DNA from: Bacteroidia bacterium
GTDB taxonomy: Bacteria > Bacteroidota > Bacteroidia > M30B66
Assembly: GCA_965279035.1 (NCBI GenBank)
Contig: OZ257142.1
Coordinates: forward strand, 3,872,001-3,936,000
DNA: 64,000 nt
Direction: 5' to 3'
This document shows, in pieces, positions 21,258-41,626 of this stretch. Numbering within the stretch: position 1 is the stretch's first letter; each line of letters begins with the position of its first letter. Under the pieces are notes generated by a model. It was not told the DNA's origin. It saw only the letters and a list, made by a program, of their open reading frames with translations, and searched no databases. The translations under genes and the position numbers were made by a program.

Positions 21258-21341
21258 AATGTTGATTGATTTTCGACATCCAATAATTAAAGATGTCGGA
21301 ATCTATAGATATACGTTGCTACAAATTTATAATATCTGCAA

Positions 21342-21621
21342 CCTCGGACTGAAGTCCGAGGCTACTAGTATCCGATTCTAAAATTCAAGCTTTAATTGAC
21401 CATAATGCTTCAAATTACTATCAGCAACCTCGGACTTCAGTCCAAGGCTACTAGTATCCGATTCTAAAATTCAAGCTTTAATTGACCATAATGCTTCAAA
21501 TTACTATCTGCAACCTCGGACTTCAGTCCGAGGCTACTAGAACCAAAATCTCAAATTCTAGTACTCATTGACCTCGACTTCTGCAAACTACCAATTTGCA
21601 TCCTCGGACTTCTGTCCGAGG
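21342..21621 (-). repeat. Tandem array of four GTAG-type REP palindromes (BIME-like)
   Basis: CCTCGGACT-NN-AGTCCGAGG(CTAC) at 21342, 21428, 21514 and 21602 (periods 86/86/88); first two linkers nearly identical. Confidence 0.88.
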
Positions 21622-21657
21622 CTCCAAGCCTCAATATCAAATGAAAGATTATATAAA

Positions 21658-37273: not shown

Positions 37274-37535
37274 CCTCGGACTAAAGTCCGAGGCTACTAG
37301 AACCAAAATCTCAAATTCTAGTTCTCATTGACATCCTCTTCTGCAAAATACCAATCTGCATCCTCGGACTTCAGTCCGAGGCTACTAGAACTAAAATCTC
37401 AAATTCTAGTTCTCATTGACCTCCTCTTCTGCAAAATACCAATCTGCATCCTCGTACTTCAGACCGAGGCCCCGAGGCCCTGAGTAGTCTACTACAAATT
37501 TCAAATATTCAGCACCCTCGGACTTCAGTCCGAGG
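37274..37535 (-). repeat. Second array of four GTAG-type REP palindromes
   Basis: Same 20-bp palindrome at 37274, 37362, 37450 (degenerate) and 37516; periods 88/88/66. Confidence 0.88.
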
Positions 37536-37553: not shown

Positions 37554-38486
37554 TTACGTGTTTTTAGAGTTGCTATCCGTTTTTACGATATGCATCAACT
37601 GACGAAAATTCTTCTCCATTCCATCTGGAGAACCATCCAAGAAAATCGCATTTCCTTTTCCATTTTCTGCAAAATGCTTGATCGCTTCTGTCCACATCGT
37701 AAATAAAATCACCGATGTATCCATATCAGCTTGCTGCATTTCCTTCGCGGCTAAACTCATCCCCTTGGCCACCTCTTCACGGAAAAGTGCGACACCTTGT
37801 CCGCGTAATTGTGCCGCTTGACGTTCTGCTTCAGCTGCAATTTTAATCGCGTTTCCTTCGGCTTCGGCTGCTTTGGTTTTGGTGATCAATAATGCTTGTC
37901 CTTCGTTTTCGGCTGCTGCTTTTAAGTTATTCGAAGCCACCACTTGCGACATCGATTTCATAATCACATCATCAAACGTAATATCATTCAACTGTAAATC
38001 GATCAGGTGATACCCCCAACTTTCGAGTGTTTGGTCAATTTGATCTTTCACGTCAGAAACAATTTCACCACGTAAAACCAAGACCTCACTCTGCTTCTTA
38101 TTCGCCACAAAAGCCCGAATCGAGCCTTCTACCGTGCGAATTAATGCTTGCATCAAGTTGCGCTCATCAATGAATTTAAATGCTACATTTTTGATTGTTT
38201 CTTCATCCGGATTCACCACAGCAAAAAGCAACATCGCCTTGAAATATACATTCGCCTGATCTACCGTCACCGCCTGAAATTCCAGTTCCACCGAACGATT
38301 TTGTATAGAAACACGCTTGTATATCTGCTCCACAAAAGGCACCTTAAAATTCAGTCCCGGACGCATCATCCGTTTGTATTTACCAAATATGGTGGTTACC
38401 GCAATGGTTCCCTGCTGAACAGTTGCAAAAGATGTAAAGACGAATAAAATCGCCAATACAAGAAGAATGATGGGAATGAGGTTCAT
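37554..38486 (-). CDS. SPFH/Band 7 domain protein
   Basis: N-terminal TM, FGKY....PGLNFKVP, SPFH core, Ala/Glu-rich coiled coil. Confidence 0.92.
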   Translation of the reverse strand: MNLIPIILLVLAILFVFTSFATVQQGTIAVTTIFGKYKRMMRPGLNFKVPFVEQIYKRVSIQNRSVELEFQAVTVDQANVYFKAMLLFAVVNPDEETIKNVAFKFIDERNLMQALIRTVEGSIRAFVANKKQSEVLVLRGEIVSDVKDQIDQTLESWGYHLIDLQLNDITFDDVIMKSMSQVVASNNLKAAAENEGQALLITKTKAAEAEGNAIKIAAEAERQAAQLRGQGVALFREEVAKGMSLAAKEMQQADMDTSVILFTMWTEAIKHFAENGKGNAIFLDGSPDGMEKNFRQLMHIVKTDSNSKNT

Positions 38487-38490
38487 GGTT

Positions 38491-38645
38491 AATGTGCTAG
38501 TGTGCTGGTGAATAATGTGCTGATGTGTTAGTGTGCTGATGATTAGTTTGATAGTGTGTTATAGTGCCGAGATTATGTGATGATGTGCTGATGTGCTGGT
38601 GATTAATTTGCAGTTGTGTTAGTGAGCTGATGAATTATTAAGTGA
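38491..38645. repeat. Degenerate octamer array (TGTGCTGA-like)
   Basis: Repeated TGTGCTGA/TGTGCTAG/TGTGTTAG/TGTGATGA units. Confidence 0.75.
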
Positions 38646-38820
38646 TGTTTTGATGTTAAATCATGAAGAGATTTAAAGTGTGTAAGATATCAGATATACT
38701 GCTAATTCAAAAAGAAATTATTGGGTTTAGTTTATAATTAGAACTATTAATTAGTCATCAATTAAGATCTTTCAATAAAAATCATTTTTTACAAATTTCC
38801 ATTTCAATCGAATAAACGGC

Positions 38821-38884
38821 ATTGCCTAATCATCAAATCAATTAATTAGCACTTCATTTCACATCCGCACATTTCCTAATCAGC
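38821..38884. repeat. Complementary octamer array (TCAGCACA-like), part left of IS110
   Basis: TTAGCACT, TCACATCCGCACAT and CTAATCAGC; continues at 40099. Confidence 0.6.
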
Positions 38885-38900
38885 CTTTAGACTTGCACTA

Positions 38901-39080
38901 TTATTTTAGTTGAGATATCTTGACTGAAAATAAACAAAGAAACGGGGTGAACTATCTCATCAGCTAGGTCTTTAAATCCCTAAGGTGTGTATGAGTCCCC
39001 GTTTCCTTTAACCATGTTGTTAATGGCCAGCTAGAATTTTAGACTTCGAGATCTATTAAAGGTTTTAGCCAAGAGCAACA
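38901..39080 (+). ncRNA. Predicted IS110 bridge RNA
   Basis: 5' hairpin 38901-38933; target-binding loop closed by GAAACGGGG/CCCCGTTTC with guides CTCATCAGC and GGTGTGT; donor-binding loop closed by TGTTG/CAACA and GGC/GCC with guides CTAGAAT and TAAAGGT. Confidence 0.8.
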
Positions 39081-39095
39081 CTTAAAAACAAAAGT

Positions 39096-40076
39096 ATGAA
39101 GAAGAACTTTATTGGCATTGATGTGTCAAAATTAACGCTGGATGTTTATTTACATAATCAATCTCAGCACAACGTCTTTAGCAATGATATCGATGGTTAT
39201 ACACTGATGCTTGCTTGGTTAAAGCAGTTGAAAGTGAGTGTAAAATCGATGGCCATTTGCTTTGAGCATACGGGTATTTATAGCGAGGATTTATCTGTGT
39301 TTTTGAGTGAAAAGAAGATCTGTTTTTACATGGAATCCTCCTTAAACATTAAGTATTCTATTGGACTTCAGCGAGGCAAAAATGATAAGATAGACTCCCA
39401 AAGAATCGCAAATTTCATTGCATTACATGCAGAACAGCTTAGCCCAACGGTACTATCAAAGAGTGCTGTAGCGCAGCTGAGAAAGCTCTTGAGTATGCGT
39501 TCGCATCTGGAAAAAGAGAAGATAGGCATCAAAAACAGACTTAAGAACTCATCAAAAACCACTGGTGTAGATATAGTTTTTCAAATCGAAACGGATCTGT
39601 TAAAGACCTTTAACGATAAACTTAAACTGGTAGAAGAGGAAATCAAATCATTGATAAAGTCAGATGATAATCTTCGTCAAATCGACGAATTAGTTCAATC
39701 TATAAAAGGAGTTGGACCAGTGTCGAGTTGGTATTTAATCGCCACAACAAATGGCTTTGAATACTTCGACAATGCTCGTCAATATGCATGTTATAGTGGA
39801 ATAGCTCCATTCGAAAAATCATCAGGAACATCCATAAAAGGGAAAACACAAACCGATAGAAGATCAAATCGAAAAATCAATGGAGTATTAACAATGGCGG
39901 CGCGTTCGGCAGTATTAAATAACACCGAAATGAGAGAATATATGGAGCGTAAAATCCAGGAAGGAAAACATTATAATTGTGCACTCAATGCAGTCAAAAA
40001 CAAACTTGTATCAAGAGTATTTGCTGTCGTAAAAAGAAAAACACCCTATGTTGATCTAAAAAAATACGCTGCATAG
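39096..40076 (+). CDS. IS110-family DEDD recombinase/transposase
   Basis: IGIDVSK, EHTG and KNDKIDS (DEDD), SIKGVG, catalytic-serine motif GIAPFEKSSG; intact 326 aa. Confidence 0.96.
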   Translation: MKKNFIGIDVSKLTLDVYLHNQSQHNVFSNDIDGYTLMLAWLKQLKVSVKSMAICFEHTGIYSEDLSVFLSEKKICFYMESSLNIKYSIGLQRGKNDKIDSQRIANFIALHAEQLSPTVLSKSAVAQLRKLLSMRSHLEKEKIGIKNRLKNSSKTTGVDIVFQIETDLLKTFNDKLKLVEEEIKSLIKSDDNLRQIDELVQSIKGVGPVSSWYLIATTNGFEYFDNARQYACYSGIAPFEKSSGTSIKGKTQTDRRSNRKINGVLTMAARSAVLNNTEMREYMERKIQEGKHYNCALNAVKNKLVSRVFAVVKRKTPYVDLKKYAA

Positions 40077-40098
40077 ACTTGCATAAGTCCTAGAATAC

Positions 40099-40185
40099 AC
40101 ACCATCACATCAACTAATAAGCACATCTTCTAATAAGCACATCAGCTCATCAACTATCCGATAGCTATCGGATCAGCACACTAGC
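40099..40185. repeat. Complementary octamer array, part right of IS110, with embedded 18-bp palindrome
   Basis: TAAGCACA, TCAGCTCA and TCAGCACA units; ATCCGATAGCTATCGGAT at 40156-40173. Confidence 0.7.
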
Positions 40186-41626
40186 TAATTTTCAAACACA
40201 CATTCTTCGCCTCCGTAAAAAATCGCAAGGCTTCCCATCCGCCTTCGCGCCCTACTCCACTCTGTTTTACGCCGCCAAAGGGTGTTCTTAAATCACGCAA
40301 CATCCAACAGTTTACCCAAACAATTCCAGTTTTTAATTGTGATGCGATTCGATGTGCTCGAGTAACATGATTTGTCCAAACCGAAAAGGCAAGTCCATAC
40401 GATGTGCTATTGGCAAATTCAACGGCTTCTTCTTCGGAGTCAAATGGCATCAAAGTGACAACCGGACCAAAAATTTCTTCTTGATTGCAACGGGCTTGAG
40501 CATTTAATCCTTCAATGACAGTTGGTTCTATAAAAAACCCAGATGCATTTTCACCTTCCGGATAAATTCGATTTCCTCCACTTAAAATACTTCCGCCTTC
40601 ATCACGAGCCAGCTGAATATAGGATAGTACTTTTTCCATGTGTTGTTCTGATACGACCGATCCCATATCAGATTGAGCATCCATTGGATTTCCTACACGT
40701 AATTGCTTTACTCTTTCTATAAATGCGACTTTAAATTGAGTGTAAATACTTCGTTCAATCAAAATGCGCGATCCACACAAACATATCTGTCCTTGGTTCG
40801 AAAATGCAGCTCTTACAGCTTCCTTTACGGTATGTTCGAAATCGCAATCTGCAAATATCAAGGTGGCATTTTTACCTCCTAATTCAAGTGATAGTTTTTT
40901 AAACTGAGGTGCAGCAACGCGCGCTATTTCGGCACCTGTGCGGGTTCCACCTGTAAACGAAATGGCTAAAACATCTGGATGAGCTACCATCGCAGCACCG
41001 ACATCCGGTCCTAAACCATGCAACACATTGAGTACTCCTGCCGGAAATCCTGCTTCAATGCACAGTTTTGAAAATAAATAGGCTGTCATCGGTGTAATTT
41101 CCGAAGGCTTTGCAACTACTGTATTTCCGCTTGCTAATGCCGGTGCAATCTTCCAAGTAAATAAATACAATGGTAAATTCCAGGGCGAAATGCATGCTAC
41201 AACACCAAAAGCTTGACGAAGTGTATAATTGATTGCAACATCATCGGTCGCATGCGCTTCGGTACTTGTGTGTAAAATAGCCGTAGCAAAAAACCGAATG
41301 TTGGCTATTGCTCTAGGAATATCAACACTTCTGGCTACATGCAAAGGCTTTCCAGAATCAATGCTTTCGGCTAATGCCAAGGCTTCAAGATCACGCTCCA
41401 TGAGATTTGCTAGATGAATCATGTTCAGCGAGCGTTGATTCGCTTTAAGTGAGGACCAAGATGGATAAGCCAGTTTTGCTGCTTTAATAGCTTCATTCAC
41501 ATCCTCCACATTAGAAGCCGGTAGTTGACTATATACTTTTCCTGTAGCTGGATTAGTATTGTTGAGCCAGTTTGAATGTTGGGGCTCACAAAGTTTTCCT
41601 TGGATATAATTGAGAATTTGAAGCAT
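40181..41626 (-). CDS. Aldehyde dehydrogenase, 2-aminomuconate/2-hydroxymuconate semialdehyde dehydrogenase-like
   Basis: ISPWNLPLYLFTWK, SFTGGT, LELGGKN, NQGQICLCGSR, EEIFGPV and RDLRTPFGG. Confidence 0.88.
   Translation of the reverse strand: MLQILNYIQGKLCEPQHSNWLNNTNPATGKVYSQLPASNVEDVNEAIKAAKLAYPSWSSLKANQRSLNMIHLANLMERDLEALALAESIDSGKPLHVARSVDIPRAIANIRFFATAILHTSTEAHATDDVAINYTLRQAFGVVACISPWNLPLYLFTWKIAPALASGNTVVAKPSEITPMTAYLFSKLCIEAGFPAGVLNVLHGLGPDVGAAMVAHPDVLAISFTGGTRTGAEIARVAAPQFKKLSLELGGKNATLIFADCDFEHTVKEAVRAAFSNQGQICLCGSRILIERSIYTQFKVAFIERVKQLRVGNPMDAQSDMGSVVSEQHMEKVLSYIQLARDEGGSILSGGNRIYPEGENASGFFIEPTVIEGLNAQARCNQEEIFGPVVTLMPFDSEEEAVEFANSTSYGLAFSVWTNHVTRAHRIASQLKTGIVWVNCWMLRDLRTPFGGVKQSGVGREGGWEALRFFTEAKNVCLKIS

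Follow-up and report, generated by a model that had tools for sequence, protein, structure and literature searches.

The stretch analysed here, a window of 64,000 nucleotides (nt) from a Bacteroidia bacterium (contig OZ257142.1 of assembly GCA_965279035.1, positions 3,872,001 to 3,936,000 of the forward strand), carries an insertion sequence of the IS110 group at window positions 38885-40098 on the plus strand. The element is 1214 bp long and is made up of a 211-nt left end, a gene for a recombinase of 326 amino acids (aa) and a 22-nt right end. We put at about 90% the probability that it is intact, has recently been active and works in the manner of IS621, the bridge-RNA element of Escherichia coli. 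The case is carried by the anatomy of the element, by the covariation of its guides with the flanking DNA, by compensatory changes in the helices of the predicted RNA, by multiple identical copies in a sequencing run and by the like targets at those other copies. An earlier sequence-only reading of this DNA had proposed a bispecific guide RNA of the IS621 type programmed against octamer repeats, and the recombinase domains, the catalytic residues and both kinds of covariation bear out the guide RNA.

The left junction reads CTAATCAGC/CTTTA (38876-38884/38885-38889; the slash marks the element boundary) and the right junction CTAGAATAC/ACACC (40090-40098/40099-40103). The longer strings that adjoin these boundaries inside the element, CTTTAGAC after 38884/38885 and CCTAGAATAC before 40098/40099, are the ends that it has in common with the related loci L001-L005 and L011. 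Outside the element lie the left target half with positions 8-9 (CTAATCA-GC, 38876-38884), which agrees with the left target guide CTCATCAGC in 8 of its 9 bases, and the right target half ACACC (40099-40103), which together with the AC at 40097-40098 forms a 7/7 complement of GGTGTGT. The circle junction, or donor, can be reconstructed as CTAGAAT-AC-CTTTA. The non-coding left end (38885-39095) encodes the predicted bridge RNA, as judged from a minimum-free-energy (MFE) fold and a family alignment, while in the right end (40077-40098) the CTTG at 40078-40081 is a candidate -33 box and CTAGAAT at 40090-40096, the left donor half, is followed by AC at donor positions 8-9. This layout of a long non-coding left end and a short right end is the IS110-group pattern given in PMC11208160. 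The junctions, the four guides and the hairpins of the sequence-only reading were all located where it had placed them. Its description of the element as compact is of little consequence, since 1214 bp stand beside the 1277 bp given for IS621 and the proteins are equally long. A 10-nt direct repeat, TAGACTTGCA, has one copy in the left end (38888-38897) and one in the right end (40074-40083), where it runs over the stop codon; among relatives, only TTGCA or TTTG of it is held in common.

The recombinase gene (39096-40076, plus strand) is the sole long open reading frame (ORF) of the element. Its product contains PF01548 (residues 6-151, E 2.5e-16) and PF02371 (residues 198-283, E 2.2e-18), both above the curated cut-offs, and over residues 4-318 it matches the solved structures of ISCro4 (9t56, E 1.6e-25) and IS621 (E 1.5e-22) in the Protein Data Bank (PDB). 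Residues D9, E57, D97, D100 and S243-G244 align with D11, E60, D102, D105 and S241-G242 of IS621 (PDB chain offset +2) and are invariant in an alignment of 24 homologues of 39-96% identity. Catalytic roles for D11, E60, D102, D105 and S241 of IS621 are described in the accessible part of PMC11208158. The DEDD and serine motifs can thus be called intact, as had been claimed.

In its MFE fold (-47.8 kcal/mol, z -2.0), the left end at 38885-39095 forms a 5' hairpin followed by two stem-loops, each of which has an internal loop. The 5' hairpin (38904-38929) is predicted from the MFE fold alone. The target-binding stem-loop occupies 38939-39005, and its basal stem pairs 38939-38947 with 38997-39005 (helix 1: nine pairs, eight of them changed on both sides among relatives, 96.8% of alignment cells paired). 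Its left target guide, CTCATCAGC in DNA and CUCAUCAGC in RNA (38956-38964), is 9 nt of top-strand sequence with an 8/9 match to the left flank; its right target guide, GGUGUGU (38984-38990), is 7 nt complementary to the top strand and pairs 7/7 with the right junction ACACACC. The two halves are separated by an apical TAGG...CCTA hairpin (38965-38983; helix 2: five pairs, four changed on both sides). The AU that follows at 38991-38992 is a candidate handshake guide, being complementary to donor positions 7 and 6 (T and A of xTAGAAT); it is found in 46 of the 47 RNAs extracted from the family and, with the RNA and donor sides both invariant, it provides no covariation evidence.

The donor-binding stem-loop (39014-39081) has an inner stem that pairs 39024-39027 with 39068-39071, and in each of its helices 3 and 4 three of the four pairs are changed on both sides. 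Here the left donor guide CUAGAAU (39031-39037) matches 40090-40096 at 7/7, the right donor guide UAAAGGU (39057-39063) is a 7/7 complement of AC (40097-40098) plus CTTTA (38885-38889), and a TAGA/TCTA hairpin lies between them. All of these features are on the plus strand. The matches claimed earlier for the left target guide and the two donor guides are therefore those found. The right target guide had been said to pair with one G-U wobble; the complementarity stands, and the wobble arises only against the reconstructed GC target, the occupied junction ACACACC being paired perfectly.

Relatives support this structure. RNAalifold, run on a MAFFT alignment of 35 of the 41 distinct RNA stretches, returned 12 pairs, located in the loop 1 basal stem and the loop 2 apical hairpin, and 11 of the 12 carry compensatory changes. 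A four-helix structure of 22 pairs, which adds an apical hairpin to loop 1 and an inner stem to loop 2, was drawn by hand from the window sequence and the alignment and so somewhat favours its own score; on the alignment it has 89.4% of cells paired versus 73.6% in shuffles (0 of 500 as high), with 139 double-change cells versus 38 in shuffles, and slid controls are 32-54% paired. Compensatory changes are present in all four helices.

A protein search returned 3417 homologues at E up to 0.001, mostly metagenomic and many of them on contigs of about 1.2-2 kb. Relatives from a metagenome scan stand at 86% (L001), 75% (L002 and L003, one element at two sites), 68% (L004), 67% (L005) and 39% (L006). 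A scan of species-representative genomes gave 282 relatives, of which 80 loci were kept; nearly all of these are labelled Bacteroidota, with one labelled Ignavibacteriales and two without a taxon. Since the window also encodes type IX secretion genes (PorV/PorQ-family and PorZ-like matches), a Bacteroidota host is well supported by its gene content together with the labels of the relatives.

Close relatives have the ends CTTTAGACTTGCAC... and ...CCTAGAATAC in common, and their target guides and flanks differ in step. The right guide and right flank are GGTGTGT and ACACACC in the window, AGTGTGT and ACACACT in L002 and L003, GATGTGT and ACACATC in L004, and TAAATGT and ACATTTA in L005, where the left target match is also complete (9/9, TCATCTATC). 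A regular expression for the conserved two-loop frame extracted all four guides from 47 of 91 sources (90 loci and the window), among which are 36 distinct target-guide pairs. At left flank positions 1-8, guides match their own locus at 6.37 of 8 positions (n=43) versus 2.17 of 8 for the flanks of other loci (n=1750); at right flank positions 10-14 the figures are 4.29 of 5 (n=34) versus 1.47 of 5 (n=1102). Guide-target covariation in homologues, one of the checks proposed with the sequence-only reading, is thus evident for both guides, with own-locus matches far above cross-locus ones. It is hard to reconcile these results with guide-like matches that are incidental, the target being picked by the protein alone or by an RNA at the other end as in IS1111-type elements. 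The covariation extends over 36 distinct guide pairs with cross-locus controls, the helices carry compensatory changes, and the right end, at 22 nt, is too short to hold an RNA. We regard incidental matches as extremely improbable.

The state of the element today is best seen in the sequencing runs, four of which, all from one sample, contain the stretch almost completely. In run X1 the element is a single unitig of 1221 nt (38881-40101) with 0 differences and a depth of 747.9, while its flanks have depths of 198.2 and 192.8; this ratio of about 3.8x is read as roughly four copies, unitig depth not being a copy number, and the copies are taken as identical because the unitig is free of variants. 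The ends of the unitig place CAGC before and ACA after the element in every copy. Among the loose ends of X1, one other left flank runs ...CACTAGCAC and then ATCAGC/, giving CACATCAGC, which matches the guide at 8 of 9 positions, and of two other right flanks one reads /ACACCA and then ACCCACCAGCACATCAG. These other flanks, CACATCAGC on the left and /ACACCA on the right, lie in octamer arrays. In run X5, which represents a related organism, pieces of the element are 95-99% alike and the right flank again enters octamers. Different ends or unrelated targets at other copies had been named in advance as an outcome that would refute the sequence-only reading; the copies seen in X1 and X5 do not show it.

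These observations also bear on whether the copy in the window is a fossil, an IS110 element whose bridge RNA worked in the past but which has ceased to move. The occupied site does depart from the guide at target position 3 (A for C), and a joint of the circle or of an empty site was not seen in contigs; the runs listed as containing the stretch include no RNA run, which counts neither way. On the other hand, the ORF is undamaged and retains every catalytic residue, the four guides are likewise undamaged, the X1 copies are identical at about 3.8x the flank depth, and near-identical proteins (96% and 87%) recur on contigs of about 1.3-2 kb from other samples. A fossil is therefore unlikely in our judgement.

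Several points weigh against an intact, recently active, IS621-like element. A search of 38400-40400 against Rfam 15, with E values up to 1 admitted, yields no match. The 44 of 91 sources that the regular expression missed are the more distant or truncated loci. Donor variants do agree with their ends (guide TAAGAGT with left end TCTTA, TAAAAGT with TTTTA), although the element ends were located partly by means of the donor guides, so that agreement on the donor side is partly by construction. The left donor guide is followed by UU, which is unable to pair with the AC core. The donor-loop handshake base does not covary with target position 7 (20 of 36 pair versus 17.5 expected, and 885 of 5000 shuffles equal this). 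The contigs, which drop rare forms and so carry little weight here, are without a circle-junction or empty-site joint, and two items that were listed with them are other array loci and not an empty site. Finally, the strict same-core rule of IS621 is not followed, as the left junction has GC and the right junction AC, with only C9 in common. The differing junction dinucleotides argue against a strict IS621 core rule and not against the mechanism.

An IS621-like element of this anatomy would be expected to move as follows. The target loop would pair with both strands of a 14-nt site close to CTCATCA-GC-ACACC, and the donor loop would pair likewise with the abutted element ends CTAGAAT-AC-CTTTA. 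The DEDD/serine recombinase would then cut the top strands after position 9 and exchange them, which would yield the left target half with GC/CTTTA... on the left and ...CTAGAAT-AC/ with the right target half on the right. These proposed products of top-strand exchange are the junctions actually present in the sequence. The preferred sites are the units of CAYYAGCA octamer arrays. The production and binding of the RNA, the chemistry of cleavage and the circular intermediate are all inferred from the work on IS621.

The core dinucleotide is of particular interest. In IS621, a CT core is identical in target and donor and is paired by all four guides (PMC11208160), and engineered uses filter for matching cores, according to the accessible portion of bioRxiv 10.1101/2025.05.14.653916. 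The sequence-only reading had likewise assumed a dinucleotide core, which has to be given up, because only the C is duplicated and the junctions read GC versus AC. At all 19 of 19 loci with good two-sided matches, base 8 on the left equals base 8 of the left guide (G in 13, T in 4, C in 2) and the right junction has A, the latter being imposed by the right-end search pattern. When the right end was searched without this constraint, the donor half was followed by AC in 36 matches and by TC in 4, the TC matches coming from precisely those elements in which the right target guide has A rather than U as its last base. The last base of the right target guide thus tracks base 8 of the donor, not of the target. 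In the 31 distinct guide pairs with GU at the end of the right target guide, the left guide carries G (18 pairs), T (6), C (6) or A (1) at base 8. This pattern suggests that position 8 is a target-specified base that may act like an added handshake position, fully paired only after exchange.

Such an arrangement touches the question of whether the top strand defines integration, and it agrees with what has been learned about IS621. The IS621 top strand is cut between positions 9 and 10, and bottom-strand exchange leaves mismatches that need repair, as described in the accessible part of PMC11208158; two preprints, one of them bioRxiv 10.1101/2025.10.25.684509, report in the parts available mainly single-strand or top-strand reactions. 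If tolerance of a mismatch at position 8 holds experimentally, engineered systems would gain a wider choice of sites.

The junction of the circle may have a second role. Left-end positions 4-11 of the element, TAGACTTG (38888-38895, plus strand), match TAnnTTTG at 5 of 6 positions and are a candidate -7 box of the Bacteroidota type; TTTG and TAnnTTTG are the -33 and -7 boxes of the Bacteroides primary sigma factor, as reported in the available part of PMC7366714. Over 29 distinct right-end/left-end pairs, left-end positions 4-11 agree with TAnnTTTG at 6/6 in 13 and at 5/6 in 13, and in 17 of the 29 a TTTG lies exactly 20 nt upstream across the junction, within the right end. The other 12 pairs have no TTTG at spacings of 18-22 nt, and a TTG there is conserved in at least 80% of pairs. 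The window itself has CTTG (40078-40081), 20 nt and then TAGACTTG (38888-38895), and in the integrated state TCCG occupies the -33 place. From these sequences, a Bacteroidota-type promoter appears to be split across the circle junction, with a TTTG-like box, 20 nt and a TAnnTTTG-like box; alternatively, the conserved bases of the boxes could be contacts for the protein or the guides. For IS621, a junction promoter is described in the accessible parts of PMC11208158 and PMC13626964. A TTTG/TAnnTTTG junction promoter, if real, would show a circle-specific switch rebuilt for a different sigma factor. Two other candidates were set aside. A search for a sigma-70 promoter in the left end gave 7 sites versus 6.7 expected, none of them upstream of the RNA on the plus strand, and TTGCAT-17-TAGACT, picked out by eye over the junction, is less convincing than the boxes of the Bacteroidota type.

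The targets are arrays of CAYYAGCA-type octamers, which within the window are confined to the intergenic region of the element. One array (38487-38640, minus strand) abuts the start codon of an SPFH-family gene (37554-38486, minus strand), and the other (40099-40180, plus strand) abuts the stop of an aldehyde dehydrogenase gene (40181-41626, minus strand) and continues to the left of the element at about 38820-38884. When up to 3 mismatches are allowed, the window has 12 matches to the target 14-mer versus 2.88 expected (0 of 100 shuffles reached 12), and 10 of the 12 matches are in this intergenic region. Among the target-like sites is an unoccupied one, ATCATCAGCACACT (38530-38543, minus strand), with 2 mismatches to the 14-mer, both at its outer ends; the 12-nt match that the sequence-only reading had reported on the minus strand is perfect and lies within it. 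An 18-nt perfect palindrome, ATCCGATAGCTATCGGAT, is found at 40156-40173, inside the array that adjoins the aldehyde dehydrogenase stop, and a similar one, GATAGCTATCGG, is found in the left flank beside the L001 array.

The two arrays are inverted relative to each other both at the window locus and in L001. The reconstructed empty site (38487-38884 joined to 40099-40180), read on the minus strand, folds as one long hairpin of -114.4 kcal/mol, versus -83.4 +/- 4.6 for 30 mononucleotide shuffles (z -6.8). Because the inverted arrays pair in this fold, the element has landed in one arm of a large extragenic octamer palindrome. The contrast drawn earlier between an octamer family and the palindromes of repetitive extragenic palindromic (REP) sequences therefore holds in part: octamer arrays are the target, and the arrays here are nonetheless inverted and fold into a long hairpin.

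The CAYYAGCA arrays are a dispersed family of intergenic repeats in related Bacteroidota genomes (loci L091-L107). A pattern of two units with at most 2 mismatches has 18 matches in G001, to which L012 belongs, and 32 matches in G002, to which L011 belongs; the reversed pattern has 0 in both genomes. The units vary by genome, with CATTAGCA in G002 and CATCAGCA in G001. Apart from L107 and the window array at 38487-38640, the arrays examined (10 of 12) follow the stop codon of a mechanically called ORF at a distance of 0 to about 100 nt, with TGCTRATG in the sense orientation, an association to be read with the fact that a sense-orientation array has TGA in all three frames, so that the end of an ORF at the array edge is partly forced. 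Insertion is probably harmless, since the arrays are intergenic and mostly placed just after stop codons.

The arrays might themselves be by-products of the element, left as footprints or by recombination between targets, rather than repeats of the host that were there before it. In principle, the units of a tandem repeat could be recombined with one another through a guide directed at them, and engineered bridge RNAs contract GAA repeats, as reported in the available part of bioRxiv 10.1101/2025.05.14.653916. Several loci, however, have arrays without an element, arrays are also found in G002, whose related element L011 targets a different, REP-like sequence, and the units differ between G002 (CATTAGCA) and G001 (CATCAGCA). 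We consider an origin of the arrays from the element very unlikely.

Other members of the family have other targets. Some are directed to GC-rich, palindrome-like sites, e.g. CCTGCCGGC/AGGCA, and the presence of such palindrome-like or REP-like targets points to natural reprogramming within the clade as the source of octamer targeting. The 75% relative at L003 is inserted in a REP-like, palindrome-bearing unit that is repeated and measures about 45 nt (GAGCTGAAAAAGCACACT...CTGACGATAACTGTCAGGACA); this is the target of the sister element and is seen in the flanks of L003 and L011. The window has a second, REP-like repeat family of its own, in tandem units of 86-88 bp at 21333-21623 (3.4 copies) and 37274-37470 (2.2 copies), with the palindrome CCTCGGACTTCAGTCCGAGG in both. 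In L091 (G002) and L098 (G001), TAATTCG repeats and GATTTGAA repeats adjoin the octamer arrays, and the intergenic DNA of G001 and G002 seems rich in short tandem repeats. The octamer arrays are a separate small puzzle of genome architecture.

The details specific to this element can be joined into a single picture, in which the core would have shrunk to C9, a target-set position 8 would face a donor A8 recognised by the U that closes both right guides, every junction, with the target base on its left and the donor base on its right, would be a natural record of products that the top strand alone defines, the promoter would be split across the junction in the Bacteroidota manner, and the octamer targets after stop codons would perhaps be expanded or contracted. 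We offer this combination tentatively, as one that falls a little short of even odds.

Comparison with known systems places the element within the bridge-RNA family. With IS621 of E. coli it shares the two domains, the five catalytic residues and the protein length of 326 aa, an RNA in the long left end with two stem-loops and internal loops, and the polarity of the guides, in that the left guide of each loop has top-strand sequence and the right guide is complementary to the top strand. The recognised site is again 7+2+5 = 14 nt, and the candidate handshake AU beside the right target guide could pair with donor positions 7 and 6, as the handshake guides of IS621 do. The two differ in that the sequence match is distant (E 1.5e-22); IS621 has a CT core in target and donor, whereas here the donor has AC and the target NC (mostly GC), with only the C in common; the natural right target guide of IS621 pairs with 4 nt and the one here with 7; and positions 8-9 fall outside the left donor guide of the element here. 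IS621 targets REP sequences of E. coli, whereas the target here is an octamer array, and the candidate junction promoter here is of the Bacteroidota type, not sigma-70.

ISCro4, or IS622, of Citrobacter rodentium belongs to the same family and is the best solved-structure match (9t56, E 1.6e-25, residues 4-318). It differs in having a CT core, used with matching cores according to the available part of bioRxiv 10.1101/2025.05.14.653916, and in its proteobacterial host. ISPpu9 and ISPpu10 of Pseudomonas, as far as the accessible source describes them, also insert in repeated intergenic sequences, which offer many equivalent safe sites; their targets are palindromic REP units, whereas the element here uses a tandem octamer array, though two inverted arrays can pair. 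For CazIS110-1 of Caloranaerobacter azorensis, the accessible part of bioRxiv 10.1101/2025.10.25.684509 describes integration mainly via the top strand. The junctions here look top-strand-defined in the same way, with the target base 8 on the left and the donor base 8 on the right; CazIS110-1 is a Firmicutes element studied experimentally, whereas ours is known from sequence.

The family itself has been charted widely. Published predictions of bridge RNAs cover 85.7% of ISfinder's IS110-group elements (PMC11208160) and 32,190 loci with 86 models (bioRxiv 10.64898/2026.10.21.760802). The right guides of 7 nt that the sequence-only reading had put forward as possibly new are anticipated by PMC11208160, which already has longer right guides in other orthologues. 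In a narrow search, the host phylum was absent from the main texts of PMC11208160, the IS622 preprint (bioRxiv 10.1101/2025.05.14.653916) and the seekRNA paper; it occurs once in the text of bioRxiv 10.64898/2026.10.21.760802 and nine times in a preprint on the rewriting of bacterial genomes (10.64898/2026.04.29.721476). Set beside these systems, the element belongs on good evidence to the known bridge-RNA family but is an ordinary representative of it, and its novelty is smaller than had been suggested. Its value is that of a clean and fully readable natural example, in which the guides, the ends, the target and further copies all agree.

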